Positions 6,492-20,698 are shown, counted from the first letter of the stretch. The stretch: 64,000 bases of DNA from Pirellulales bacterium (GCA_041746715.1 JBGTGN010000023.1:12245-76244); one strand, 5' to 3'. The notes: generated from the letters alone by a model not told the origin. A program made the numbers and translations.

Positions 6492-6624
6492 TCGGCGCTC
6501 GGAATCCTAGAAAACGGCTGGCTTCGGCGATAGGCGTTTTTCGACGAGCCACTCGAGGAATTTTCGTCTGCTATAGTGAGGGGCCTGTTTCAGCGTTGCT
6601 CGAACAGGAGGCCCGATTCGGCGT

Positions 6625-6700
6625 GGTGGCTGTAGCTCAGTTGGTTAGAGCATCGGTTTGTGGTACCGAGGGTCGCGGGTTCGAGTCCCGTCAGTCACCC
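6625..6700 (+). tRNA. tRNA-His (anticodon GTG)
   Basis: Cloverleaf folded by hand. Encoded G-1 at 6625. Acceptor GTGGCTG (6626-6632) pairs with CAGTCAC (6692-6698). D arm GCTC/GAGC. Anticodon stem TCGGT/ACCGA with loop TTGTGGT (anticodon 6660-6662). 5-nt variable loop. T arm GCGGG-TTCGAGT-CCCGT. Discriminator C at 6699. A full CCA is not encoded. Confidence 0.92.
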
Positions 6701-6757
6701 ATTTTTCTGCCGCGATTTTTCGCCCGCATCTCGCCCGCCTTCCCTGGAGTCGCCCGC

Positions 6758-8155
6758 ATGTCTCGCTCTCCCCGCCGCCAGTCCGCGAGCCGCCGTTCGT
6801 TCCTTGCTGCGTCATCAACTGTTGCCGCTGGCTACTTCGTGGCACCGCTGACGCGAGGGGAAGATGCCGCTCCTCCAACGAGTGCCAACGAGGAGATTCG
6901 TTTCGCCTGCATCGGGATTGGCGGCAAGGGGCAGAGCGACTCCGCTGACGCGGCACGCGGGGGAAAGGTCGTGGCGGTTGCCGACGTAGACTCCAATCAA
7001 CTCAAGCGGGCCGCGAAGTCGTTCGCCAGTGCCATGCCCTACACCGACTTCCGGAAGATGCTCGATGAGATGGCTGGCGAGATCGACGCGGTCACCATCA
7101 GCACGCCAGACCACACCCACATCACCGCCGCGGCGATGACGCTGGAGCTTGGGAAGCACTGCTTCTGCCAGAAGCCACTCACGCGGTCGATCGCAGCCGC
7201 CCGTCTGCTTGGCACCCTTGCCCGTGAGAAGGGCGTCGCCACGCAGATGGGGAACCAGGGCACCGCCGCCGATTCCCTGCGTCGGGCTGCCTCGCTCATC
7301 CAGTCAGGTGCGCTCGGCATGGTGAAGGAAGTGCATGTCTGGACCAACCGGCCGGTGTGGCCGCAGGGGGGTGGTCGGCCTCCCGAAGCGCCAGTGCCTC
7401 CAAACCTCGACTGGGATCTTTGGATCGGCCCCTCGCCGATGCGTCCCTACGGCCCGGGGTATCACCCGTTCGCGTGGCGGGGCTTCTGGGACTTTGGCAC
7501 CGGTGCCCTGGGCGACATGGCCTGCCACACGTTCAACATGCCATTCATGGCGCTCAATCTCCGCGACCCTTCGAGCGTGCAGGCGCTGACCAGTGGTCAC
7601 AACAAGGAGACGTATCCCAAGTGGTCGATGATCGACTATGAGTTTCCAGCGCTCGGCGAGCGGCAGGCGGTGAAGGTCAAGTGGTACGACGGCGGGAAAC
7701 TCCCCGACGCCACCCTGTTCGCCGGATTCCCGGCGGAGCGGAAGGAAATGAAAGACGGTACGGTCCAGGAGAAGCCATTTCAGGTCGCGGCGAGGGGGGT
7801 GCTCATCGTCGGCGACAAGGAATCCCTCTACGCTCCGGGCGACTACTGCGACCAAGGGATCAAGCTCCAGAGTGGTGCCACGCCGGCCGACGTCGCGTTC
7901 GAGAAGTCGCCTGGCCACTTCCGGGAGTGGATCGACGCCATCAGGGGCGGACCGGCCGCGCGGAGCAACTTCCCCGACTACGCCGGCCCGCTCACCGAAA
8001 CGATCCTGCTCGGCAACCTCGCCGTGTGGGCCGCCGACACACCCGACGCTCAGGGGAAGAAGATCGAGTGGGATCCAGTGAAGCTCGTCGCCACGAATGC
8101 TCCCGAGGTGGAGCATGTCGTGCGGCCGACGTATCGCGAAGGCTGGCAGATGTGA
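6758..8155 (+). CDS. Gfo/Idh/MocA-family oxidoreductase with twin-arginine (TAT) signal
   Basis: ATG 6758 gives MSRSPRRQSASRRSFLAASSTVAAG (RRSFL TAT motif at 6788-6805). Rossmann segment IRFACIGIGGKGQSD. The track ORF start at 6596 runs through the tRNA and is rejected. Confidence 0.85.
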   Translation: MSRSPRRQSASRRSFLAASSTVAAGYFVAPLTRGEDAAPPTSANEEIRFACIGIGGKGQSDSADAARGGKVVAVADVDSNQLKRAAKSFASAMPYTDFRKMLDEMAGEIDAVTISTPDHTHITAAAMTLELGKHCFCQKPLTRSIAAARLLGTLAREKGVATQMGNQGTAADSLRRAASLIQSGALGMVKEVHVWTNRPVWPQGGGRPPEAPVPPNLDWDLWIGPSPMRPYGPGYHPFAWRGFWDFGTGALGDMACHTFNMPFMALNLRDPSSVQALTSGHNKETYPKWSMIDYEFPALGERQAVKVKWYDGGKLPDATLFAGFPAERKEMKDGTVQEKPFQVAARGVLIVGDKESLYAPGDYCDQGIKLQSGATPADVAFEKSPGHFREWIDAIRGGPAARSNFPDYAGPLTETILLGNLAVWAADTPDAQGKKIEWDPVKLVATNAPEVEHVVRPTYREGWQM

Positions 8156-8193: not shown

Positions 8194-9441
8194 ATGAAGA
8201 ATATCTGGGTAGCGGTCGCGTTCGTCGGCTTCCTGATGGCCGCGGTCGCCGCGGGTGCCCCAGGGCCGAATGATGCCGTGGTGGCGGCTGTCGAGCGGAT
8301 CGGTGGGACCGTGACCAAAGGAAGCGATGGCCATGTGACCGGCATCGCGTTGGCCAATCTCCCAACAACCGATGATGACCTTGCGGTCTTTGCGAAAATC
8401 CCGGGCCTCGAGTCGCTCGACGTCTGGGGTGCCGAGATCACGGACACGGGCATGGAATCGATCGGCCGGATGACGAGCCTTCGGAGACTCGTGCTCGAGA
8501 ACACGGATGTCGCCGACGAGGGAGCTGCGGCGATCGCCCGGCTCGAAAATCTTCGCGTGCTCAACCTTCGTCGATCCTCGAACATGACCGATACGGCGCT
8601 CGAGCACGTCGCGAAGCTCGAGCAGCTCGAGCAGCTCATCCTCCTCTACAACAACTTCACCGATGCAGGGCTTGCCCACCTGGCCCCACTTGGCTCGCTT
8701 CGCGTGCTTGACCTTCGAGGCTGCGCCCTGGTGAGCGACGCGGGGCTCGAGCATGTGGCCAAGCTCACGAGCCTCGAGCGGGTCAAACTCCGCTGCCCAA
8801 GCGTGAGTGACATGGGGCTTGCCCACGTGGCGACGCTCCCGAAACTTCGCGGCTTCGCGGTCGAGGACGGTCAAGTCACCGATGCCGGGCTCGCTCCTTT
8901 CGCCACCAAGACCGACATCGACGAAATTAACGTGATGCGGACGTTCATCGGCGACGAGGGCCTTGGCCATCTCGCCGGGCTTGGGAAACTCAAGCGGCTC
9001 GAGCTCCGCGGCACACTCGTAGGAGATGCCGGGCTCGTGCACCTGGCGAAGCTGCCCGAGCTCGTGCTGCTCGACGTGGCGGAAACGACCGTCGGCGACG
9101 ATGGCGTGGCGCACCTGGCGGGCCTCGGAAAACTCTCCGCGCTCGATCTCTGGGATACGCGGGTTGGCGATGAGGGGATGGCGGCAGTCGGCAAGATCAC
9201 CAGCCTTGTCTCGCTCAATCTCCAAAACACCAGCGTGGGTGACGAGGGCGTGTCGCGACTCGCCGGGCTCGAGCGGCTCGAGGATATCACGCTCTCCGGC
9301 ACGCAGATCGGCGATGCCGCCCTGGTGACGCTCGCCAAGCTCCCACGGCTTCGTCGCGTTGCGCTCGCCTTCACGGCCGTCGGCGACGAGGCGATCGCGG
9401 CGCTTGCTGCCAAGCGGCCGGCGCTTGTCATCGAGCGGTAG
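8194..9441 (+). CDS. Exported leucine-rich-repeat (RNI-like LRR) protein
   Basis: Signal peptide MKNIWVAVAFVGFLMAAVAAGA. About 14 tandem 24-25-aa repeats of the form L..L.L..T.V.D.G...LA.L. GAGGAG lies 7 nt upstream of the ATG. Confidence 0.8.
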   Translation: MKNIWVAVAFVGFLMAAVAAGAPGPNDAVVAAVERIGGTVTKGSDGHVTGIALANLPTTDDDLAVFAKIPGLESLDVWGAEITDTGMESIGRMTSLRRLVLENTDVADEGAAAIARLENLRVLNLRRSSNMTDTALEHVAKLEQLEQLILLYNNFTDAGLAHLAPLGSLRVLDLRGCALVSDAGLEHVAKLTSLERVKLRCPSVSDMGLAHVATLPKLRGFAVEDGQVTDAGLAPFATKTDIDEINVMRTFIGDEGLGHLAGLGKLKRLELRGTLVGDAGLVHLAKLPELVLLDVAETTVGDDGVAHLAGLGKLSALDLWDTRVGDEGMAAVGKITSLVSLNLQNTSVGDEGVSRLAGLERLEDITLSGTQIGDAALVTLAKLPRLRRVALAFTAVGDEAIAALAAKRPALVIER

Positions 9442-9517: not shown

Positions 9518-9546
9518 TTGACGCGAGTCCCCCGGAGGGGTATCAC
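9518..9546 (+). promoter_or_regulatory. Candidate sigma70-like promoter for the pspA cluster
   Basis: TTGACG (9518-9523), 17-nt spacer, TATCAC (9541-9546), ~90 nt upstream of the pspA ATG. A pyrimidine-rich tract follows (cttttcccgtttccctgttttccttttt). Pattern match only. Confidence 0.3.
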
Positions 9547-9638
9547 GACAGTCTCGCGGGCCCGAGTTTTACTGGCCTTTTCCCGTTTCCCTGTTTTCCT
9601 TTTTGTAAGCCACGAGTTCCGAAGCGGAGTCAACGACC

Positions 9639-10388
9639 ATGTTTCTCGGCAAGATATGGAAAGCGTTCGCCGCACAGATGAACAAGCTCGCCAACTTCTT
9701 TTGGACGGCTGATCCAATCGCCCAGCTTCAGTATGAGTACGACAAAGCGGTGGAGCAGATGAAGGAGGGGCGAGAGGGCCTTGAGCAATACCGGGCCCTT
9801 GTCGAACGGGTGACGAGGCAGGTCAACGCTGACCGGCAGCACGTGGCCTCGCTCGAGGCACGCGTGAAGGCTTACCTCAAGGCGGGTGAGCGAGATACCG
9901 CGGCCAGGTTTGCCCTCGAGCTTCAGAAGGCCAAGAAGGAGATGGCCGAGAACGAGGCCCAGCTCCAGCTCCACGAAACGGCCTATGAGAACAACGTCAC
10001 GAAGATCAAGCACGCCACGGGGAAACTCGGGGATCTCAAAACAAAGATTCAGAAATATGACGCCGAGCTCAAGCTCTCGCGAGCGGAAGCCGAGCTTGCC
10101 AAGCTTGCCCACAGCTTCAACTTCGACGTCACGACCGACTTCGGTCAGATCGAGGACGTGATCCAAGACAAGATTGGCTTGAACCGGGCCAAGGTTCGGG
10201 TGGCTGCCGACCTCTCAGGGCAGGGTCTCGAGGATATCCGCCGAGAGCAGGCCGTGGAGGCGACCATGGCGGCCGACGCCCTCCGGGAGTTTGAGGTCGA
10301 GCTGGGCCTTGTGACGCCCGAGACTGCAGGTGTCACCGCCGACGCCAAGGAGCTCGGTTCCCAGAAGATCAGCCAGACGGCTGACTGA
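9639..10388 (+). CDS. pspA: PspA/IM30/Vipp1-family protein (ESCRT-III superfamily)
   Basis: 249 aa. N-terminal amphipathic helix MFLGKIWKAFAAQMNKLANFF. DPIAQLQYEYDKAVEQMKEGREGLEQYRA and long coiled-coil helices typical of PspA. Confidence 0.88.
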   Translation: MFLGKIWKAFAAQMNKLANFFWTADPIAQLQYEYDKAVEQMKEGREGLEQYRALVERVTRQVNADRQHVASLEARVKAYLKAGERDTAARFALELQKAKKEMAENEAQLQLHETAYENNVTKIKHATGKLGDLKTKIQKYDAELKLSRAEAELAKLAHSFNFDVTTDFGQIEDVIQDKIGLNRAKVRVAADLSGQGLEDIRREQAVEATMAADALREFEVELGLVTPETAGVTADAKELGSQKISQTAD

Positions 10389-10421
10389 TTTCCACCATCC
10401 CGTCGAGAGTGAGCCGGTTTC

Positions 10422-12296
10422 GTGACGACGTCCATGCCCACCGTCGAGCCGGACCGGCGCCCCACGGCAGATGGAGCGCTTGGGCCGTCAGCGCTGGGCA
10501 CCGCTCCCACGACAACCGGTGCGGCTGCGTCGCTCGCCTCCTGGTGCCCCGGCTGGGCTGAGCGGCTTGGCGATGCGTATCTCTCCGGAACGAGCTGCGT
10601 CTTTCTCCTTCATGGCAACGTGCGGGATCTCGTGCCGGTCGCGCCGCCGATCGCCGGCCAGGCCGATTCAATCGATGCCTGGGGTACCGTTTCGGATTTT
10701 CTCGCCCGCGAGATGTTTGGCCGTTGGGATATCGTGCTGTCCTACGATGTCGGCAAGGGGCTTCGGCCGCTCGCCGGCAGCGATCCCGAGCGGCTGCGAG
10801 CGATGGCCCAGTGGCTCACCGAACGAGCCGGCGGTGCGCCGTCGTGGCCTCGCGATCCAGACGCGGCGATGGCCATGATCGATGCGATTCTCGAGCGAAA
10901 TCTGATCGATCCGCCCGAGCAACGAAAACGGATCGCCGTGGTGCTCGACTACGCGGCGTATCTCGTTCCGGCGGGCGAAAGCGGATCCCGGTCGGCGGCA
11001 TCGCGGATGGTTCGGATCCTGAGCTGGGCCCGGAATCCACTGCTTCGCCGAGTGAATGTCGCCATCGTTCTCATGACCGAGAGCCTCGCCGATGTCCATC
11101 CACGACTGACTACAAGCGGGGCGATCACGGCGGTCGAGGTTCCAATGCCAGACCACGTCGAGCGGGAACGGTTTGCCCTGGCGACCGCGGCGGCCTCGGG
11201 CGTTTCGGCCGATCAGGATGCGGCGGTGCGTCGGATGGCAGCCGTTTCGGGAGGGCTCACACTCGAGAGTCTCCGCGGCGTGATCACACTCGCGGCTCGC
11301 GATGGGTCGGCGCCTGATGGCCGAGAGTTTGCCGAAAAGAAAAAGGACCTCATCGAGCGAAGCTGTCACGGTTTGGTGGAGTTCATCGAGCCGCGGCTTT
11401 CGCTCGATGCCGTGGCGGGGCATGGCGAGGCGAAAAACCGACTTGAATCGGACGCCCGAGCGATCCGCCGCGGACAGTTCGAGGCAGCCCCGATGGGCTA
11501 TCTCATCTGCGGCCCCGTCGGCACGGGCAAGAGTTTTATTGCCGAATGCTATGCGGGGACCGTGGGCATCCCCTGTGCCGTGCTCAAGAACTTCCGCAGC
11601 AAGTACGTCGGGGAGACCGAGGGCAATCTCGAACACGCCCTCGGTGTGCTCCGAAGCCTGGGGCCTGTGGTGATCGTGGTGGATGAGGCCGACGCGGCCC
11701 TCGGCAACCGTGAGAGCACGGGTGACTCCGGCACAAGTGGCCGCGTGTTCTCGATGATCGCTCGCCAGATGGGTGACACTCGCTACCGCGGCAAGATCGT
11801 CTGGATGCTCCTCACGAGCCGGCCAGACCGATTGCCGATCGACCTCAAACGGCAGGGCAGGGCGGAGGTCCATATTCCTCTTTTCTATCCGCACGATCAG
11901 CAGGAAATGGCCGCGATGTTTGCGGCGATGGCCCGCAAGGCCAAGGTGACGCTCGCAGCCGGGCTGCCTGGCCCGATCGATCTCGACATGGGGCTCTCCG
12001 GGGCCGACATCGAAAGCGTGGTATTGGCCGCACGACGACGGGGGCTTGAGCGGGCCTCGGAAGCTGGTGCGCCGCCGCCTGACGAGATTGCCGAAGCCGA
12101 TCTCCGGGCGGCCCTCGACGATTTCCTCCCCTCGGCCCAGGGGCTCGAAAAGGAGCTTCAGGAAATCGTGGCGGTCCTCGAATGCACCGAGAAACGGTTT
12201 CTTCCGTCACACTGGCGGGCAGCCATTGAGCAGCCTGGCGGTCGCGGCCGACTCCAGGAGCGGGCCGCTGCGATCCGCGAGATAATCCGTTCATGA
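10422..12296 (+). CDS. Tandem AAA ATPase (classical AAA clade, CDC48/Vps4-like): degenerate D1 plus active D2
   Basis: GTG 10422 (ATG 10434 is an alternative). D2 has Walker A GPVGTGKS (11511-11534), Walker B VVIVVDEAD and the SRH-like LLTSRPDRLPIDLKRQGRAEVHIPLFYP. The N-terminal half keeps the AAA layout but lacks P-loop residues (see findings). Confidence 0.85.
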   Translation: MTTSMPTVEPDRRPTADGALGPSALGTAPTTTGAAASLASWCPGWAERLGDAYLSGTSCVFLLHGNVRDLVPVAPPIAGQADSIDAWGTVSDFLAREMFGRWDIVLSYDVGKGLRPLAGSDPERLRAMAQWLTERAGGAPSWPRDPDAAMAMIDAILERNLIDPPEQRKRIAVVLDYAAYLVPAGESGSRSAASRMVRILSWARNPLLRRVNVAIVLMTESLADVHPRLTTSGAITAVEVPMPDHVERERFALATAAASGVSADQDAAVRRMAAVSGGLTLESLRGVITLAARDGSAPDGREFAEKKKDLIERSCHGLVEFIEPRLSLDAVAGHGEAKNRLESDARAIRRGQFEAAPMGYLICGPVGTGKSFIAECYAGTVGIPCAVLKNFRSKYVGETEGNLEHALGVLRSLGPVVIVVDEADAALGNRESTGDSGTSGRVFSMIARQMGDTRYRGKIVWMLLTSRPDRLPIDLKRQGRAEVHIPLFYPHDQQEMAAMFAAMARKAKVTLAAGLPGPIDLDMGLSGADIESVVLAARRRGLERASEAGAPPPDEIAEADLRAALDDFLPSAQGLEKELQEIVAVLECTEKRFLPSHWRAAIEQPGGRGRLQERAAAIREIIRS

Positions 12297-12364
12297 CTGT
12301 GCGGCGCTGCCGCTCGCCATCCCCACGATCAGCCCAGCACCATCACCCCCCGAGGAAGACCCGA

Positions 12365-12658
12365 ATGTCCGCAAAGACCCCATGGTTCGACGACAAGACC
12401 GAGGCCCCGCTCCTGGCAGAGTATGCTCGCAAACTCGATTCCTTCTGCGATGCTGTGGCCGATGGAAAGGTGACGTCGGCGGAGCTCGACGAGCAGGAGA
12501 AGCGTCTGGTGGCTCACATGAAGGCGCTCGAACCGATGCTTTCCGATGAGGCCCATGAGAAAGTGACGCAGCTCCTCTGCGAGGTGACGGCCTACGGTCT
12601 CATGCAGGCGATGCACCTGGCGGGTAAGAGCCGTCCGAAGACAACATTCCGCGGCTGA
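12365..12658 (+). CDS. Small helical hypothetical protein (97 aa; 121 aa if ATG 12293 is used)
   Basis: ATG 12365 is preceded by GAGGAAG 7 nt upstream. The alternative ATG 12293 forms an ATGA overlap with the AAA stop. Sequence MSAKTPWFDDKTEAPLLAEYARKLDSFCDAVADGKVTSAELDEQEKRLVAHMKALEP... has no motif I recognise. Confidence 0.5.
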   Translation: MSAKTPWFDDKTEAPLLAEYARKLDSFCDAVADGKVTSAELDEQEKRLVAHMKALEPMLSDEAHEKVTQLLCEVTAYGLMQAMHLAGKSRPKTTFRG

Positions 12659-12718
12659 TGCCGACCGTATCTGTTCACGATTCAACCTGAGTACGAACCC
12701 CCGAGGAGAGGCGATTCC

Positions 12719-14482
12719 ATGGCAGGGCAACCAAAAACATCATTCTGGGTGACCGTGTGGCTTGTGGCACTTGCCCTTGTTGGATACGCGGCATGGAAGT
12801 GGGGCGTGTTCGATCAGGGTGGCGGTGCGCAAGTGCCCCCGCCGCCGGTCGCGGCCGGAGGGGTGAACGCCGGCGGCGGTGGTGGCGGCGACGACCTGCC
12901 CACCGAAGCTCCCGATGAGATGGTCCCGACAACAGTTCAGGAATACGCGTTTAAGCCAACCGAGCGGTTGCCTCCGGTGACAGGTATCGCAGGCTACAAG
13001 CCCCTCGAGGATGACACCGTTCGGTTCGCGCTCAACGTGTGGGCCGGCTGGGCGCCGATTATCTACGCCAACGAGGGCTTTCAGCCTGGCAAAATCTGGC
13101 AGGCGCCGGGTGGCAAGCCGTTCAAGGTGGAGCTTGTGCTCATCGACAACCCCGTGACCATGCGGGATGCCTGGGCGGCCGGAGAAGTGCCGATCGGCTG
13201 GGCCACACTCGACATGGTGCCCCTCTTTCTCGAGGGGCTCGTCGATGCATCGGGGAAGCCGAAGGATTCCCGAGCCATGCCGCGGATCTACCAGCAGGTC
13301 GATTTTTCCAACGGCGGCGACGGCATCGTGGTTCGCGAAAATATCAAGACGGTGGCCGATCTCGCCGGCAAGAAGCTCGTGCTCGCCCAGAATTCCCCGA
13401 GCCAGTTCTTCGCCCTCAACATGCTCGTCAATGGTGGGCTTCAGCCAGGCGATGTGGAGATGATCTACACCGACGACGCCTTCCAGGCGGCCGCCGCGTT
13501 CAATGCCCAAAAGAATCTCGCGGGCTGCGTGTCCTGGGCGCCCGACATCTACAACCTTGAGAAGGCGAAGGGCAATCGCATGCTCGTTACGACCCTCACG
13601 GCCAACAGACTCATCGCCGACGTCTGGTTCGCCCGAGCCGACTTCGCGAAGGATCACCCCGACAAGATCGAGGCAATCGTGCGGGGCATCTTCGACGCGA
13701 TGGAGGAGCTCAAGACGGAGAGCGCGAAGGCAAAGGCGGCTGAGCTTATGGCCGACGGCTTCAACATTCCGGCCAGCGATACGCTCGGCATGATGGCCGA
13801 CGCCCACTCCACCAACTGGGCCGAGAACTACCAGTTCTTCATCAACCGCAACAATCCGTCCAACTTTGAGCGGCTCTGGAAGCAGGCTTACCGGCTCTAC
13901 CGAAAAGTGGGCACCATCACCCACCCGGCCGTGCCATTTGACCAGGTGATGGATTTCTCGGTCATCCAGAAGCTCGGCAAGGAGCCGAAGTATGGGGAGA
14001 CAAAAGACGAGTACGATCGGCCGCTCCCGCCGAAATCGCTCTCGGCAATCCGGGCAGAAAACGAAGAGATCCTTACCAACACCGTCGTCATTCACTTTTT
14101 TCCCAATAGCGCCGATTTCCGAAAACTCATCACTCGGAAGATCGACGGTAAGGCCGTCGAGGAACCCTATGACCCACGTGCCGATCTCGTGCTCGATGAG
14201 GTCGCCACGCTTGCCAAGCAGTTCGGCAACGCGAGGATCGTGATCGAGGGCCACACGGACGGCTCGATGAAGGGGCAGATTCCGGCATCGCTCGTGAAAG
14301 AACTGTCGATGTCGCGAGCCGAGTCGGTGAAGAACGAGATCATCGCGAAGTTTGACTTCGATGCGAACCGGTTTGCCGTGGATGGTTTGGGCTGGGACCG
14401 ACCGGCCGATCCCGACCAACCGCATGAGCACGTGCTCAACCGTCGCGTGGAGATCAAGGTCTACTCCGCCGAGAAGGAGTGA
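12719..14482 (+). CDS. Membrane-anchored ABC substrate-binding protein (NitT/TauT, NMT1-like) fused to a C-terminal OmpA-like peptidoglycan-binding domain
   Basis: N-terminal TM segment FWVTVWLVALALVGYAAW, then a Gly/Pro linker. SBP core: VRFALNVWAGWAPIIYANEGF...GKKLVLAQNSPSQFFAL. C-terminal OmpA_C pattern: RIVIEGHTDGS...SMSRAESVKNEI...NRRVEIKV (about 14126-14482). GAGGAGAGG lies upstream of the ATG. Confidence 0.8.
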   Translation: MAGQPKTSFWVTVWLVALALVGYAAWKWGVFDQGGGAQVPPPPVAAGGVNAGGGGGGDDLPTEAPDEMVPTTVQEYAFKPTERLPPVTGIAGYKPLEDDTVRFALNVWAGWAPIIYANEGFQPGKIWQAPGGKPFKVELVLIDNPVTMRDAWAAGEVPIGWATLDMVPLFLEGLVDASGKPKDSRAMPRIYQQVDFSNGGDGIVVRENIKTVADLAGKKLVLAQNSPSQFFALNMLVNGGLQPGDVEMIYTDDAFQAAAAFNAQKNLAGCVSWAPDIYNLEKAKGNRMLVTTLTANRLIADVWFARADFAKDHPDKIEAIVRGIFDAMEELKTESAKAKAAELMADGFNIPASDTLGMMADAHSTNWAENYQFFINRNNPSNFERLWKQAYRLYRKVGTITHPAVPFDQVMDFSVIQKLGKEPKYGETKDEYDRPLPPKSLSAIRAENEEILTNTVVIHFFPNSADFRKLITRKIDGKAVEEPYDPRADLVLDEVATLAKQFGNARIVIEGHTDGSMKGQIPASLVKELSMSRAESVKNEIIAKFDFDANRFAVDGLGWDRPADPDQPHEHVLNRRVEIKVYSAEKE

Positions 14483-14488
14483 CCGGCT

Positions 14489-15475
14489 GTGGCAGACACG
14501 CCTGCTCAATCGTCCGATGCGGGTCGATCGATCGATGCCGGGAAGAGGCCTGCGCGAGTCTCCTCGCCGCTTCGTGGCGACCTCTCGACGGAGGCGACGT
14601 TTCTCTGGGGCGCCGCGGCGATCGTCACGGTTCTCCTCGCCTGGTGGCTCGCCACGGCGCCACTGTTTCCGGTGCCGGTCGAACATGTCGCCGAGCGGCC
14701 TCCGGAGCGTGAATATGTGCCGCTGGTGAGCCCTGTCATGCTACCGGGGCCAGGGGCGGTCTTCGAGGCGGTGCCCCGTGTGATCACGGAGCGAAAACTC
14801 CTCGCGAACACTCGCGTGACGCTCGTACGGGTGTTGATGGGTTTTGGGCTCGCGGCACTCATCGGTGTGCCACTGGGGGTGGCGGCCGCCTGCTTTCCGT
14901 CGGTGCGAGCGTTTCTCTATCCCGTGACGATCTTCGGTCGCAACATTCCTGTGGCCGCCCTCATCCCGCTCACGTTTTCACTTTTTGGGATCGGCGAGTT
15001 CCAGAAGGTGATGTTTCTCTTTGTCGCGAGCGTCGCGTTTGTGATCAGCGATGCGACGGCCGCCGTGCTGGAGGTGCCGCAGCGGTATGTCGATACGGCG
15101 CTCACCCTGGGGGCCTCGCGGCTCCAGATCATTCTCAAGGTGCTCGTGCCGCTCGCGGCACCCGTGATCTTCAACTCCTTGCGACTCCTCTTCGGCCTCG
15201 CCTTCGGCTACGTAATGCTGGCTGAGCTCGTAAAGTTTGGAAACGATTCCGGAGGGCTGGGCGACCTCATCAACATCTCCCAGCGGCGAGGGGACCGGGA
15301 GCCGATTCTCATCGTGCTCATCGTGATTCCGATCTTGGCCTACGCCATCGATCGAAGCCTGTGGTGGCTCCAGTGCGATCTCTTTCCGTATCGCTACGGC
15401 GGCAAGGGGCGGATTCCTCGGCTGTTCCGGAAACTCTTCAGCCCGCCGCCAGTGACCGTGGAGGTCAGGCCATGA
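14489..15475 (+). CDS. ABC transporter permease (NitT/TauT family)
   Basis: Multi-TM protein with an EAA-type loop DTALTLGASRLQIILKVLVPLAAP. It starts 6 nt after the SBP stop. The exact start is uncertain (GTG 14489). Confidence 0.85.
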   Translation: MADTPAQSSDAGRSIDAGKRPARVSSPLRGDLSTEATFLWGAAAIVTVLLAWWLATAPLFPVPVEHVAERPPEREYVPLVSPVMLPGPGAVFEAVPRVITERKLLANTRVTLVRVLMGFGLAALIGVPLGVAAACFPSVRAFLYPVTIFGRNIPVAALIPLTFSLFGIGEFQKVMFLFVASVAFVISDATAAVLEVPQRYVDTALTLGASRLQIILKVLVPLAAPVIFNSLRLLFGLAFGYVMLAELVKFGNDSGGLGDLINISQRRGDREPILIVLIVIPILAYAIDRSLWWLQCDLFPYRYGGKGRIPRLFRKLFSPPPVTVEVRP

Positions 15476-16335
15476 TGCCAGACAACCAGGCGGTCGTTCC
15501 AGAGCCCCCAATCGATCGTCCGCTGGCCATCGAGCTTCGCGGCGTCACCAAGGTGTATCTCCCTGGAACGCCCCGCGAGGTCACCGCGATCAGCGATGTG
15601 ACGTTCACCATCCCCGATCGCCATGACCACGGCGAGTTCTGCTCGTTTCTGGGACCGAGCGGCTGCGGGAAGAGCACCGTTCTCCGCATGGTTGCCGGCC
15701 TCGGACCGCAGTTCCCTCCGACGAGCGGGAGCGTTCGCGTGCTAGGCCATGAGGTGGTTGGCCCGGGTGCCGATCGGGGCATGGTCTTTCAGGACTACAC
15801 GAGCTTCGACAACCGGACCGTGCTCGATAACGTGACGTTTGGGCTCGAGTGTCGCGGGGTACTCAACCCGCACCGGGAGGCCGAGGGGCTCGACTGGATC
15901 GAGCGGGTGGGACTCGATCCGCGGCGAGACGCAGCGAAGTATCCCCACGAGCTTTCGGGTGGCATGCGGCAGCGGGTGGCCATCGCCCGCACGCTCATCC
16001 TGCGGCCCCGCGTGATCCTCATGGACGAGCCCTTCGGGGCGCTCGACCCGGCCACTCGGCTCGACATGCAGGACTTGCTTGTGAAACTCTGGCGGGAGGC
16101 CGAGGCCACCGTGCTCTTCGTGACCCACTCGGTCGAGGAGGCCGTGTATCTCGGCGATCGGGTTTTCCTTATGTCGACGACACCGGGGAGGATCGCCGAG
16201 GAGCTCACGCTTCCATCTCCCTCCGCCCCGGCACGCGAGGCCCAGTCGCAACCCTGGTTCAACGACGAGGTCGCGAGGCTCCACTCGAGAATCGAACGGA
16301 TCGAGGCTGAGGCAAAGCCTCTTCCAGACCGCTAA
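15472..16335 (+). CDS. ABC transporter ATP-binding protein (NitT/TauT family)
   Basis: ATG 15472 forms an ATGA overlap with the permease stop. Walker A GPSGCGKST, signature LSGGMRQRVAIAR, Walker B VILMDEPFGALD. Confidence 0.9.
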   Translation: MMPDNQAVVPEPPIDRPLAIELRGVTKVYLPGTPREVTAISDVTFTIPDRHDHGEFCSFLGPSGCGKSTVLRMVAGLGPQFPPTSGSVRVLGHEVVGPGADRGMVFQDYTSFDNRTVLDNVTFGLECRGVLNPHREAEGLDWIERVGLDPRRDAAKYPHELSGGMRQRVAIARTLILRPRVILMDEPFGALDPATRLDMQDLLVKLWREAEATVLFVTHSVEEAVYLGDRVFLMSTTPGRIAEELTLPSPSAPAREAQSQPWFNDEVARLHSRIERIEAEAKPLPDR

Positions 16336-16372
16336 CCACGCAGGGCTGAGCCCGGCCGGTGTCCTTTCAACG

Positions 16373-17212
16373 ATGTTCGAACAAATTGGTCGTTACCTCA
16401 GCGCTGCCTTCACCCACCACTGGAACCTGCTCTTTGTTGGGGCCGGGACGGCGGTGGCGTTTCTGAGTGGCCGCCCTGATGTCGTGATCCCGCTCGTTGC
16501 CGCCGGTGAGGTGCTCTACCTGGCGACCCTCATGACGAACGACCGATTTCGGGCGGCGATCGATGCCCAGGAAGCGAAGGACCGTCGGCAGGTCGATACA
16601 GCCGGAACCCAAGCGGCCTATGACCGTATCCGCAGCCAGCTTCCGCCGGCGCTTCTCACTCGATTCGATCAGCTTCGGGCCCACTGTCACAAGCTCACCG
16701 AGCTGGCCGGCAGCATGCGCGGCCCGGATGTGAGCGGCCCTGATCGGAATGCGGTGGAGTCACTCGAGCGGCTTCTGTGGGGGCATCTCCGCATGATCTG
16801 GAACGCGGCGAAGCTCTCCGAGTTTCTCGATCACACGGATGACGGTGCGCTCCGCAAGCGAGTCACGGAGCTGGAGAAGCGATTGGCTGGCATCCCAGAA
16901 GACGCTGGGGCTGCGCCTCTTCGAACAGCGGTAGACGACAACCTTCGGACAACACGGGAGCGGCTGGAAAACATCGACGAGGCCCGCCGCAAGCTCGACG
17001 TCGTTGCCGCGGAGATCGAGCGGCTTGAAACAAAGATCGCGGCCTTGGCCGAAGGCGCCGTGGCGCGCCGCGACGTCAGCGACATCGCCCAGCGTGTTGA
17101 CGAGGTCGCGGAGGGAATGCGTCGCACCGACGAGACCATGCGACAGCTCCAGCTTCCGCCCGAGCTCGAGGCGTTTGAAGCCCCCCCCGCGCTCCTCCGC
17201 GACGAAGCGTAG
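16373..17212 (+). CDS. Hypothetical membrane-anchored coiled-coil protein
   Basis: Two hydrophobic segments (WNLLFVGAGTAVAFL, VVIPLVAAGEVLYLATL), then ~200 aa of charged heptad-like helices (RKRVTELEKRLAG..., LDVVAAEIERLETKIAALAEG). It lies 37 nt after the ABC ATPase. No recognisable family. Confidence 0.6.
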   Translation: MFEQIGRYLSAAFTHHWNLLFVGAGTAVAFLSGRPDVVIPLVAAGEVLYLATLMTNDRFRAAIDAQEAKDRRQVDTAGTQAAYDRIRSQLPPALLTRFDQLRAHCHKLTELAGSMRGPDVSGPDRNAVESLERLLWGHLRMIWNAAKLSEFLDHTDDGALRKRVTELEKRLAGIPEDAGAAPLRTAVDDNLRTTRERLENIDEARRKLDVVAAEIERLETKIAALAEGAVARRDVSDIAQRVDEVAEGMRRTDETMRQLQLPPELEAFEAPPALLRDEA

Positions 17213-17663: not shown

Positions 17664-18842
17664 TCAGTCCAGCCAATTGCCTTCGGCGATTCGCTCGGGG
17701 GCATACGTCTCGGTGACGTAGCTGATGTCTTTCGAGATGAGAGCCTCGACTTCCAGCTTAAAGCCATTGGAGAGCATGGTCTCGATCTCCTTCTGCCATG
17801 GCTTTTTGCCAGCGAACCATGGGTAGGCGGCAATCTGCTTGGCTCGCTTGATGTCGGTGTCGTTGAGCGCGATTTGGACGCTTGGCGAGAGCTTGCACCG
17901 TTCGTAGTCGCGGCTGCGGAGACCGAGAAAGCGGGCCTCCGGTATGGCCATGCGTTTCGATTCGTACCCGAGATTGATCGAGCCTTGCTTGAGTACGGAG
18001 TAGATGTAGTACCCCCAGGGGTCGTTGTCGAGCAGGCAGTAGACAGGCAGCTTGAGCTCGTGGTGGAGACGGTGGAGCATTCGCCGGACACCGCGGGGGG
18101 GCTGGCCACCCCCGTGGGTCAGGAGGCAGTTGTGCTTCCGCCAAAACTTATCCTCGTTGAACCGTCGCCAGACAGTGTCTTTTTCGACATGGAGAATGAA
18201 CTTCGCGTCGCACGACTTGAACCGGATGACGTCGGCCTCGACGATCGACGGAATCGAGTAGCCGCTTGATCCCATGCGAGCGCAGTCGAGCTCATCGCCG
18301 GAATCGATGAGCGTGATCGGCCCGACGAGTCCGCCGCGGTTGCTGGCATAGACATGGAGCTCCTCGCGAAGGCTTTCGAGCGTGACTTCGAGGTCTTCGA
18401 TGATCGGGTCACACTCCTCCTGGGTCGCGAACGTCTCCTCGCGGGTGCCATCGATCGTGTGCTTGAGGAGGTAGTAGAGACCTCGGATACTGGTTGTTTT
18501 CTGTTGATCGATGAGCTGCTTGCATCCGGTGGCCACGAGCAAGGTTTGCATGTAGCTCTTGGCCTGGGAGAGGTTGAAGAGCTGCCGGCGATTCTTCTGG
18601 CTCCCCATCTCGATGATCTTCCGCGCCTTGTTGAAGCGGACGTTTGAGAGAGTGCGGGCAGGGATATCGAGCGAGGGATCCCGCCGTCTTTCGGCAGCAG
18701 CGGCGACCTCATCGGCAAGGCCCATGATGAGCTTGCGGGTCTTGAGATCGACGGGGGGGAGCTTTTCAGCCGGAGCTTTCGACGTGGATTTCGGCGTGCG
18801 GGCCATGCGCGGTAAGCTTCCGAGGGCTAGGATATGGGGCAA
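17664..18842 (-). CDS. top6A: DNA topoisomerase VI subunit A / Spo11-like protein (5Y-CAP plus Toprim)
   Basis: TSIRGLYYLLKH (RGLYY at 18471-18485). Toprim motifs ILHVEKDT (Glu at 18183-18185) and LLDNDPWGYYIY (DxD at 18021-18029). Also GGQPPRGVRRMLHRL and FKLEVEAL. Alternative start ATG 18806 (MARTPKS). Confidence 0.85.
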   Translation of the reverse strand: MPHILALGSLPRMARTPKSTSKAPAEKLPPVDLKTRKLIMGLADEVAAAAERRRDPSLDIPARTLSNVRFNKARKIIEMGSQKNRRQLFNLSQAKSYMQTLLVATGCKQLIDQQKTTSIRGLYYLLKHTIDGTREETFATQEECDPIIEDLEVTLESLREELHVYASNRGGLVGPITLIDSGDELDCARMGSSGYSIPSIVEADVIRFKSCDAKFILHVEKDTVWRRFNEDKFWRKHNCLLTHGGGQPPRGVRRMLHRLHHELKLPVYCLLDNDPWGYYIYSVLKQGSINLGYESKRMAIPEARFLGLRSRDYERCKLSPSVQIALNDTDIKRAKQIAAYPWFAGKKPWQKEIETMLSNGFKLEVEALISKDISYVTETYAPERIAEGNWLD

Positions 18843-18991: not shown

Positions 18992-20272
18992 CTACGAAAT
19001 GACCTCATCGGCCCGGCCGACGATTCGGCGGACAAAATGTGGGCCGTGTGCAGCCGTGGGTTTTGCCGGAGCCTGAGCAGTCGGCTTGGCACCGAAGAAC
19101 TTGGCCCCAAAAAACTCGGCGATCCTTGCCACGACCGTGTGCTGCTCGTCGGCCCGGAGTTCGGGGAAGATCGGCAGGGCAAGCGTCTCAATCGCCGCCT
19201 GCTCGGTTTGCGGGAGATCGCCCTGCCGCCAGCCGAGGTGTGCGAAGCAGGCCTGGAGATGGAGCGGGACGGGATAGTAGATCTCCGTGCCCACACCGCA
19301 TGCCGCAAGGTGTTTGCGGAGGGCATCCCGCTGTCCATCGGCGATTCGGATCACGTATTGATTCCAGACATGCCGGCCTCGGGTCTCGTCGCTCGGCACG
19401 GTCACATGTTCGGCGAGATCATGAGCGGCAAAGAGATCGGAGTAGCGGGCGGCGTTTTCCTGCCGGCTGGTGGTCCAGGCATCGAGGTGGGGGAGCTTGA
19501 CCCGTAGCACCGCAGCCTGGATCGAGTCGAGGCGGCTATTGATGCCGATGAGATCGTGATAGTAGCGAGGCTCCATGCCATGGACACGAAGAAGCCTGAG
19601 CGTCTTGGCGAGGTCATCGCGGGTGGTGGTCACGAAGCCGCCATCGCCGGCACCACCGAGGTTCTTCGTGGGGTAGAAACTGAAGCAACCGATGTCACCC
19701 AGTCCGCCCGAGGAGCGACCGTGCCAGGTGGAAAGAATAGACTGCGCTGCATCTTCCACGATGGGCACGCCAGCCGCCTCGGCGATTGGCGCGAGGGCGT
19801 CCATGTCGGCGGTGCGGCCGAAGAGATGGACGGGGATAATGGCCCGGCAGCGACGGCTCACCTTCCGCCGCACGTCTTCAGGATCGATGAGATACGTCGT
19901 CGGATCGATATCGGCAAAGATCGGGATCGCGCCGAGACGGGTCACGGCGCTGGCCGTGGCAAAGAAGGTGTAGCTCGGCAGCACCACCTCGTCACCCATG
20001 CCCACACCCAGTGCCATGAGCGCTAGGAGAAGGGCATCGCTCCCGGAGGCGCAGCTAATGGCGTGGGGGACATCGAGCGCGGCGGCGAGTTCTTCCTCGA
20101 GCGCGGTCACATCGGGGCCGAGCACGAAGCGGCCGGAGTCACACACGCGATCGATCGCGGCCCGAATCTCCCCACGGAGCACGCTGAATTGGCGATCTAA
20201 GGCGAGAAGGGGCACCGAGGCCAGCAACGCAGGGGCAGGGGCTAGGGGCTCGGACGGCGTGACGCTGCTCAT
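18992..20272 (-). CDS. DegT/DnrJ/EryC1/StrS-family PLP-dependent sugar aminotransferase
   Basis: LDRQFSVLRGEIRAAIDRVCDSGRFVLGP, AISCASGSDALLLAL, and the PLP-Lys context CFSFYPTKNLGGAGDGG. Start trimmed to ATG 20272 (MSSVTPSEP); the track start at 20599 adds 109 non-homologous residues. Confidence 0.85.
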   Translation of the reverse strand: MSSVTPSEPLAPAPALLASVPLLALDRQFSVLRGEIRAAIDRVCDSGRFVLGPDVTALEEELAAALDVPHAISCASGSDALLLALMALGVGMGDEVVLPSYTFFATASAVTRLGAIPIFADIDPTTYLIDPEDVRRKVSRRCRAIIPVHLFGRTADMDALAPIAEAAGVPIVEDAAQSILSTWHGRSSGGLGDIGCFSFYPTKNLGGAGDGGFVTTTRDDLAKTLRLLRVHGMEPRYYHDLIGINSRLDSIQAAVLRVKLPHLDAWTTSRQENAARYSDLFAAHDLAEHVTVPSDETRGRHVWNQYVIRIADGQRDALRKHLAACGVGTEIYYPVPLHLQACFAHLGWRQGDLPQTEQAAIETLALPIFPELRADEQHTVVARIAEFFGAKFFGAKPTAQAPAKPTAAHGPHFVRRIVGRADEVIS

Positions 20273-20698
20273 GGTGGCGAAGAATCTCCGAGGCGTGCTC
20301 ACGCGATTCGCGGGCCGAAAAGCCGGCGCCGTCGGCATCGCTTGTTCAATAGTTTCCATCGTCACGACTGCCACTGCCGCTCCAATCCAAGCGGCCCGCA
20401 GCCTGCACGGGAAGCCAGGAAATAGGTTCGCCGGCCATCCACCGTCAAGGGCAGGGTCGCGGCATGGTGGGGTCGGCAAGGCCGGTAGTCTGGCGAGCGC
20501 CGCTCGAAAGAAGGGGCGGATCGGAGTTCCTGGGAGGTTCGCCACTCTGCCCGTTTGACAGCGTTCCCGTGGCCACCCTAGATTCTTGGGCAGCATCAAG
20601 GGTTCCAGGTTCGTGCAACACCGGTGTCACGACCGGGGAAACCCCGGAGGAGAGTTTGTCGATCCCGTCTGTTCGCAAGTGACGGGTTCGCATGTCGG

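Follow-up and report, generated by a model that had tools for sequence, protein, structure and literature searches.

A conserved operon pairing PspA with a tandem AAA ATPase in Planctomycetota: a candidate remodelling module for ESCRT-III-like polymers

[quoted passage not shown] We find that these three genes form a conserved and separable core within a seven-gene operon, and that PspA–AAA adjacency recurs far beyond chance. That PspA and the ATPase work together is well supported and, in our judgement, very likely. The reading that fits best, to which we give an even chance, is that the ATPase is a Vps4-analogous, independently recruited remodeller of PspA. An earlier note on this DNA had proposed a bacterial ESCRT-III-like polymer with a dedicated unfoldase; that proposal is partly supported, being largely right in spirit, incomplete in its anatomy and already anticipated in the literature. 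The module bears on how bacteria take apart and reuse their ESCRT-III-like polymers (PspA, Vipp1). According to a 2025 review, bacteria appear to lack a Vps4-like ATPase (PMC7619361), and a structural paper invokes 'chaperones or PspF' for the turnover of PspA polymers (PMC11746142).

Anatomy of the three-gene core

The open reading frames (ORFs) of the core lie where the earlier note had placed them: 9639–10388 (+, 249 aa), 10422–12296 (+, 624 aa, GTG start) and 12293–12658 (+, 121 aa), the first two being separated by 33 nt on the same strand. The coordinates it had given for Walker A are exact, and the Walker B and second region of homology (SRH)-like segments it had named are confirmed at the positions below. 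The features of the core are as follows.

9639–10388, + strand: PspA/IM30-family protein (ESCRT-III superfamily), 249 aa, from PF04012, solved relatives and conservation
9642–9704, + strand: amphipathic helix alpha0 of PspA, aa 2–22, FLGKIWKAFAAQMNKLANFFW, from hydrophobic moment and conservation
10251–10385, + strand: C-terminal region of PspA, aa 205–249, an ALREFEVELGL helix followed by the tail VTPETAGV..KELG, from the subfamily alignment
10422–12296, + strand: tandem AAA ATPase, 624 aa, with a degenerate D1 and an active classical D2, from the AlphaFold2 model and Foldseek
10539–11456, + strand: D1-like degenerate AAA domain, aa 40–345, from a profile match to Cdc48/p97 AAA domains
11487–12101, + strand: D2, classical AAA domain, from PF00004, PDB sequence matches and invariant columns
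11511–11534, + strand: Walker A of D2, GPVGTGKS, with invariant G367 and K370
11598–11621, + strand: pore loop 1 of D2, SKYVGETE, with K-Y-V-G at aa 394–397
11667–11693, + strand: Walker B of D2, VVIVVDEAD, with invariant D421 and E422
11808–11891, + strand: SRH of D2, RPDRLPIDLKRQGR, with invariant R467, R477 and R480 (two arginine fingers)
11994–12014, + strand: lid motif of D2, LSGADIE (SGAD, without a sensor-2 Arg)
12130–12293, + strand: family-specific C-terminal helical extension, AlphaFold2 helices 574–587, 596–603 and 607–623
12365–12658, + strand: small soluble protein, 97 aa, of no known family, from homologue lengths and locus counts

The first gene is a PspA/IM30 gene, as had been proposed: its product matches Pfam PF04012 (PspA_IM30) over residues 3–211 with E=1.1e-12 and 48.5 bits against a cut-off of 33.9, and matches the solved Synechocystis PspA/Vipp1 chains 7o3w, 8qfv and 6zvr over residues 6–218 (E=4.5e-5 to 2.6e-3). 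The amphipathic helix expected at its N terminus is also found, with a hydrophobic moment of 0.46 at residues 2–22 that only 0.35% of shuffles reach, and this alpha0 helix is strongly conserved throughout the subfamily. PspA would bind the inner membrane through alpha0 and polymerise. The C-terminal region, with its extra tail (…ALREFEVELGLVTPETAGV…KELG), is conserved in 27 diverse subfamily members and is partly kept in an Armatimonadota operon (L140) as ALSEF..MGL...RDLGPA; it is a candidate partner-recognition motif.

The second gene encodes a protein with two AAA cassettes. An AlphaFold2 model, built on an alignment of 35 diverse family members, has a mean predicted local distance difference test score (pLDDT) of 88.7, with disorder limited to residues 1–35. 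When it was compared with the PDB by Foldseek, 563–625 columns of the model aligned with the D1–D2 tandem of p97, Cdc48, Rix7 and NVL, at E down to 7e-20. The N-terminal region, which the earlier note had left undefined, is thereby identified by Foldseek and by a D1 profile as the inactive D1 of this tandem: a profile of residues 40–345 alone matches Cdc48 D1 and D2 and the p97 AAA domains from the Walker B strand to the lid (E=1.3e-6). The Walker A position of D1 reads LHGNVRDLV (within 10602–10634), where GK[ST] is absent; the Walker B position reads VVLDYAAY (within 10935–10976), with loss of the Walker B glutamate; and the SRH arginines are lost. This D1-like domain is common to 1109 clusters at 50% identity, and an invariant tryptophan, W45, lies in a conserved N-terminal helix of the ATPase.

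D2, by contrast with the degenerate D1, is intact, and the ATPase is therefore a type II AAA protein. D2 matches PF00004 over residues 361–486 (E=1.3e-20), and its closest sequences in the PDB are AFG2/SPATA5, Cdc48, p97 and VAT (E~1e-28). Across the 35-member alignment, G367, K370, G397, E400, D421, E422, R467, R477 and R480 are invariant. In pore loop 1, the aromatic position is W or Y family-wide and is followed by the invariant G397, giving the pattern K-[YW]-hydrophobic-G. D2 has all the catalytic and translocase motifs known from classical AAA unfoldases that thread polypeptides, and its nearest solved relatives (Cdc48, p97, AFG2, VAT and Rix7) are unfoldases of this substrate-threading type. 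The C-terminal extension holds an ECT..FLP motif (12177–12206) that is conserved in the same alignment.

Placement of the ATPase among known families supports part of the earlier label 'CDC48/Vps4-class'. Membership of the classical AAA clade, as opposed to the PspF or bacterial enhancer-binding type, holds, given the PF00004 match and the lack of a GAFTGA motif and of a helix-turn-helix (HTH), and the Cdc48-like tandem stands; a Vps4-class architecture does not, as there is neither an MIT domain nor a Vps4 C-terminal domain. Pfam gave no MIT, Vps4_C, CDC48_N, Peptidase_M41, Sigma54_activat or HTH match in the ATPase. In NCBIfam the scores were far under the cut-offs throughout: 57 bits for CDC48 (TIGR01243; cut-off 802), 39.9 for CdvC (NF041006; cut-off 650), 42 for PAN and 34 for FtsH (TIGR01241; cut-off 600). 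The Pfam and Foldseek comparison that the earlier note had suggested thus returned Cdc48, p97, Rix7 and NVL as fold matches, without membership of the Vps4, CdvC, CDC48 or FtsH families. A hydrophobicity scan found no transmembrane (TM) segment in the ATPase. No GAFTGA motif occurs in any frame of the window, which therefore encodes no PspF-type activator. The ATPase is thus a classical-clade AAA protein outside the Vps4, Cdc48, FtsH and PspF families.

The third gene had been described as an ORF of 97–121 aa with an ATG that overlaps the AAA stop. The range covers the true size, which is 97 aa; coupling through this overlap is probably not real. The ATG at 12293 overlaps the AAA stop as ATGA, and a second ATG, at 12365, lies 68 nt past that stop. 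Of the 358 homologues, 120 were listed; almost all of these are annotated as 97 aa and the rest as 99–105 aa, and conservation in tblastn begins near residue 20–28 of the 121-aa ORF. Because of these two features we take ATG 12365 as the true start, and the overlap at 12293 is probably incidental and unused. The residues W7, F27, D33, E40, Q44, E45, L59, H64, L71, E73 and M80 are invariant. The protein has no match in the PDB or Pfam, none of the 120 homologues listed has a Pfam domain, and a hydrophobicity scan found no TM segment. As it keeps its place behind the AAA gene, the protein may be an adaptor or regulator. In the Armatimonadota locus L140 (8629–9879), a 197-aa protein without a Pfam domain and then a TerB-domain protein stand in place of the 97-aa protein, and the accessory subunit may thus have been replaced here by something not homologous to it. 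With this TerB gene and an ADG-V---E motif as leads, a TerB-like identity for the small protein was considered and rejected (hhalign 2.6% over 15 residues); profile comparison likewise gave no relation to the 197-aa protein, to PspA or to the last gene of the operon (gene 7, below).

Conservation of the core and the transporter cassette

The unit in the window is larger than the three genes first recognized. Seven genes on the same strand form the operon (9639–17212), which also encodes an ATP-binding cassette (ABC) importer, a binding protein anchored to peptidoglycan and a helical protein with a membrane anchor. Scans of the window for promoters and terminators gave counts no different from those in shuffled sequence. 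The four further genes are listed here.

12719–14482, + strand: membrane-anchored periplasmic solute-binding protein (NMT1/SsuA-type) with a C-terminal OmpA domain, 587 aa, from Pfam NMT1, NMT1_2 and OmpA
14489–15475, + strand: ABC importer permease, BPD_transp_1, TauC/SaoP/NtrB-like, from Pfam and NCBIfam, with five hydrophobic segments
15472–16335, + strand: ABC transporter ATPase, TauB/SaoA/NtrCD-like, from Pfam and NCBIfam
16373–17212, + strand: gene 7, membrane-anchored all-helical protein, 279 aa, from tblastn (E=1.8e-47)

Conservation was assessed over 136 family loci. PspA lies on the same strand in 39 of the 42 loci with at least 6.5 kb upstream, and the small gene directly follows the AAA gene in 100 of the 113 with at least 600 bp downstream. 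Among 34 fully flanked loci, the seven-gene order of the window occurs in 21, a permuted order in 5, PspA–AAA–small gene only in 5, the AAA gene alone in 2 and six genes after PspA in 1 (L078). PspA itself is kept at 80–95% identity in 50 of 56 genome loci among the matches listed. Wherever the contig extends far enough for gene order to be read, 54 Planctomycetota species genomes (mostly Pirellulales metagenome-assembled genomes, with AAA identities of 50–87%) keep the order PspA, AAA, small protein, periplasmic binding protein (PBP)/OmpA, permease and ABC ATPase. Metagenome contigs at 46–49% AAA identity have instead PspA, PBP/OmpA, permease, ABC ATPase, gene 7, AAA and small protein. Near-identical operons also occur under the label 'Candidatus Kuenenia' (L001, L003, L008, L012 and others), with sister records labelled Pirellulales or Planctomycetota; these labels look like pipeline mis-assignments.

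The operon is modular. In L062, the trio runs straight into genes for topoisomerase VI subunit A (TopoVI-A) and a DegT aminotransferase, the genes that in the window come after gene 7. Thus, the PBP/OmpA, permease, ABC ATPase and gene 7 block behaves as one insertable cassette, and the trio is the core, as the earlier note's choice of three genes implies. The conservation across phyla that it had asked about is also found. We sampled nine distant family representatives, with 27–42% identity in D1. The Armatimonadota representative has the full permuted operon; PspA stands beside the AAA gene as a bare dyad in one Sericytochromatia genome and two other contigs; two truncated contigs carry the ABC gene, a gene-7-sized ORF (268–292 aa, no Pfam match) and then the AAA gene; and three of the nine (L057, L144 and L145) have no PspA nearby, so the ATPase family is not obligatorily linked to PspA. 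The PspA–AAA linkage is frequent and cross-phylum, and not universal for the ATPase family.

Within the cassette, the solute-binding protein has an N-terminal TM segment at aa 7–26 and an OmpA domain that is a putative peptidoglycan-binding domain; its scores against the NCBIfam urea, sulfonate and taurine solute-binding protein models are all under cut-off. The ORF of the ABC ATPase opens at 15361, and the likely start is ATG 15472, which overlaps the permease stop. The transporter would be of the NitT/TauT type, an assignment for which no member reaches a curated cut-off.

Gene 7 was located by tblastn with the ~290-aa gene that sits between the ABC ATPase and AAA genes in permuted operons. 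It has 1569 homologues, with no Pfam domain among the 120 listed, and its product has a hydrophobic helical hairpin at residues 17–55 and a confidently modelled, all-helical cytoplasmic domain (AlphaFold2 pLDDT 86.5). We assign it to the transporter cassette because its constant companion is the ABC ATPase, and neither PspA nor the AAA gene. An equivalent protein has been published with a Snf7 label (see below), and we therefore considered gene 7 as a divergent Snf7/ESCRT-III protein; the label was not reproduced. Comparisons made with a PspA-subfamily profile rather than a Snf7 alignment gave an hhalign probability of 0.2%, a profile search of the PDB gave no ESCRT-III match, and the 25 Pfam families that matched most of the 39 scanned members include neither Snf7 nor PspA_IM30. 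Foldseek with the AlphaFold2 model gave no significant match: the best were AhlC/ClyA-type and BAR-type helical bundles (best E=0.09), with no ESCRT-III protein in the top 50.

Candidate mechanism, known systems and competing explanations

The core would comprise PspA, a dedicated protein translocase in the form of a tandem-AAA hexamer, and an accessory protein of 97 aa. The ATPase would engage PspA subunits, plausibly through the conserved C-terminal tail, and thread them through the D2 pore with its KYVG pore loop, with D2 hydrolysing ATP to power the process and the ring of degenerate D1 domains perhaps serving as a scaffold or docking surface. PspA polymers would then be disassembled, recycled or reshaped, and the job that Vps4 does on ESCRT-III would be carried out here by an independently recruited Cdc48-like lineage, with the 97-aa protein as a putative adaptor or regulator. 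The four-gene cassette may tie this membrane-maintenance module to solute import at a peptidoglycan-tethered site. From the gene linkage and the translocase motifs we infer that PspA is the substrate and that the ATPase disassembles or remodels its polymers, a conclusion that could equally well turn out true or false. If it is true, ATP-driven turnover of polymers of the ESCRT-III type would have evolved at least twice from Cdc48-like ancestors. For tests in vitro, this widespread and strongly conserved family supplies a concrete candidate pair that is compact and soluble.

This kind of system is already known computationally, and the earlier note was correct in recalling that surveys of the Psp system had seen PspA–AAA+ neighbourhoods. 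Ravi et al. (2024, mSystems, PMC11237479) predicted both a dyad of PspA with an inactive-AAA/AAA protein and a long operon, with examples in Clostridium (AEY64320/1) and Handelsmanbacteria (OGG56892.1), and proposed ATP-dependent membrane remodelling comparable to that by Snf7/Vps4. Their Handelsmanbacteria order is PspA→PBPB+OmpA→TM→ABC→TM+Snf7→inactive-AAA+AAA (PMC11237479). The window holds the same elements (PspA with an inactive/active AAA protein; PBP+OmpA, permease, ABC ATPase and TM helical protein), and the seven-component parts list, the ATPase architecture and the functional prediction, at which Ravi et al. arrived independently with other genomes, are shared. It differs in its order, PspA–AAA–small–PBP–permease–ABC–TM, which is a permutation of the published example, and in the 97-aa protein, which is not named there and would be at most among the 'other alpha-helical proteins'. 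The published 'SIG+TM+Snf7' protein is the equivalent of gene 7. New here are the confirmation of the degenerate D1 by structure and profile, the finding that the 97-aa protein accompanies the ATPase almost constantly, and the recognition of the transporter block as a cassette. We found no experimental study of a PspA–tandem-AAA system in the literature, in agreement with the earlier note, and no literature link of Ycf46 to Vipp1 or PspA.

A functional analogue is the ESCRT-III/Vps4 pair (CdvB/CdvC) of archaea and eukaryotes. There, as here, the gene for an ESCRT-III-superfamily polymer directly precedes that for an AAA ATPase of the classical clade, pore loops of the translocase kind are found in the ATPase, and the polymer protein carries a conserved C-terminal tail past its core helices. 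In contrast to Vps4 and CdvC, however, the window ATPase lacks the MIT, Vps4_C and beta-domains and has two AAA cassettes rather than one; its D2 scores nearer to Cdc48, AFG2 and PAN, and the polymer is of the PspA type, not the Snf7 type. An ESCRT-II-like winged HTH gene was not seen among the genes examined. Cdc48/p97/VAT, AFG2/SPATA5 and Rix7/NVL are the best matches in sequence and fold, and the whole ATPase aligns along their D1–D2 tandem. Unlike Cdc48/p97, it lacks the double-psi-barrel N domain, its D1 is without Walker A, the Walker B glutamate and the SRH arginines, and it has the ECT..FLP extension of its own. It differs from FtsH in having neither N-terminal TM segments nor a C-terminal M41 peptidase. 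A further parallel is the chloroplast HSP70B–CDJ2–CGE1 system, an ATP-driven chaperone that assembles and disassembles VIPP1, a PspA-family polymer; it is an Hsp70 system rather than an AAA translocase, and it is not operon-encoded with its client.

Several observations weigh against a Vps4-like action on PspA. Pfam detects no MIT-like recognition domain in the ATPase, and the PspA tail does not fit the MIT-interacting motif consensus. The sensor-1 Asn of classical AAA proteins is a Ser in D2 and is variable in the family. The permuted operons have PspA towards one end and the AAA gene, with gene 7 beside it, towards the other, and, as noted, 3 of the 9 distant members have no PspA nearby. PspA rods have weak intrinsic ATPase activity and may need no remodeller (PMC11746142). 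Finally, PspA of E. coli is an inhibitor that binds the AAA+ domain of PspF (cited in PMC7619361), and by that analogy the arrow of regulation could point the other way.

This last point leads to the rival explanation that survives best, which we nevertheless consider unlikely: PspA would act as a regulator or adaptor that, in cells without stress, binds the ATPase and holds it inactive or off the membrane, and membrane stress, by moving PspA to the bilayer, would free or recruit the ATPase for other clients. As in the E. coli system, PspA would be tied genetically and functionally to an AAA+ ATPase; the conserved PspA–AAA linkage is compatible with either direction of action, and the family members without a PspA neighbour indicate that the ATPase can have other clients. 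W45 of the ATPase, in addition, is a residue that we take to resemble the W56 contact of PspF. PspF, however, is a sigma-54 enhancer-binding protein of the NtrC type that has a GAFTGA loop and an HTH and is divergently transcribed; none of this applies to the window ATPase, which, having neither HTH nor GAFTGA, is not a transcription factor. The full set of translocase motifs requires a polypeptide substrate, the 97-aa protein is the sole other protein that is invariably co-encoded, and PspA forms the sort of polymer on which classical AAA enzymes act as disassemblases; all three count against this rival.

A rather improbable alternative is that the ATPase is a membrane-protein extraction or assembly chaperone for the cassette, whose clients would be the gene 7 product or else the ABC transporter together with its peptidoglycan-tethered binding protein, and that PspA only seals the membrane. 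Gene 7 encodes a membrane-anchored cytoplasmic helical protein and, where the operon is permuted, immediately precedes the AAA gene, and Ravi et al. discuss a chaperone-like role in membrane-complex assembly (PMC11237479). The trio nonetheless occurs without the cassette in 5 of 34 complete loci, and in L062 with its otherwise identical flanks; PspA–AAA dyads exist without transporter or gene 7; and when the order changes, gene 7 stays after the ABC ATPase and not with the AAA gene.

That the genes are neighbours without shared function, or an anti-phage defence island, is scarcely credible: PADLOC gave weak, sub-threshold matches of the AAA domain to IetA (E~2e-8), and the NCBIfam IteA model scored 28 bits where its cut-off is 510, but these cover the generic AAA core only, the linkage is kept across phyla and through gene-order permutation, no nuclease, protease or other effector is present, and the flanking genes are housekeeping genes. 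A defence system was rejected on these grounds, PADLOC having returned generic AAA-core and coiled-coil matches only.

Returning to PspA as the substrate of the ATPase, its most far-reaching form is a long shot: bacteria would have independently built an ESCRT-III-plus-unfoldase machine from PspA, a Cdc48-derived tandem AAA protein and a 97-aa adaptor, docked at a peptidoglycan-tethered ABC import site and perhaps actively shaping or severing planctomycete membranes, beyond the mere sealing of leaks. Planctomycetota have unusually invaginated cytoplasmic membranes. Such a machine would overturn the view that bacterial ESCRT-III systems are without a Vps4-type partner. A possible parallel to the link with a peptidoglycan-tethered ABC importer is the ProX binding protein found in some archaeal ESCRT loci (PMC11188069).

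Neighbouring genes and family variants

Directly upstream of PspA lies a gene for a leucine-rich-repeat (LRR) protein (8194–9441, +) with a hydrophobic N terminus, apparently secreted or membrane-anchored. The order GFO oxidoreductase–LRR–PspA is kept in the closest relatives; in others, the GFO/LRR pair is inverted or absent, and we therefore place it outside the module. The oxidoreductase ORF (6596–8155, GFO/IDH/MocA) contains at its 5′ end a tRNA-His (GTG) gene (6626–6700, +), such that the opening ~35 codons of the ORF merely translate the tRNA (…GFESRQSP…). The true start is probably the Met ahead of a twin-arginine-like signal, SRRSFLAASS, and tblastn matches to those first residues upstream of PspA in other loci are tRNA-His. 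Further upstream, a second AAA+-type Walker A (ILYGPPGVGKTTLAEI) at ~4565 (+) lies in an ORF of ~449 codons, which probably encodes a RarA/MgsA-like ATPase with no tie to the PspA module.

Downstream, the next gene after the operon, on the opposite strand (17664–18842, −), encodes a TopoVI-A/Spo11 homologue (TOP6A Toprim, E=3.7e-58). TopoVI-A is uncommon in bacteria and is kept beside the PspA module in relatives (L062). It is followed by a gene for a DegT/DnrJ/EryC1-type aminotransferase with a long N-terminal extension (18992–20599, −) and one for a Tex-like protein with YqgF, HHH and S1 domains (20624–23278, +). Both are identified by synteny with L062 and L028, the Pfam assignments having been made on the relatives' copies, and both look like housekeeping genes.

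Some family members depart from the architecture found in the window. P0138 (823 aa), P0146 (856 aa), P0209 and P0231 have an extra N-terminal extension of ~260 aa. We considered whether the longer members might be Rosetta-stone fusions of PspA to the ATPase and rejected this: in P0138 and P0146 the extension is a second degenerate copy of D1 (PxWA…LHGN repeated), not PspA, giving three cassettes of which one is active. The P0146 gene is not adjacent to PspA. A distant relative, P0270 (721 aa), joins the D1-like degenerate domain to an AAA domain of the FtsH type and an M41 peptidase, and would be a soluble FtsH-like protease that shares the N-terminal module of the family.

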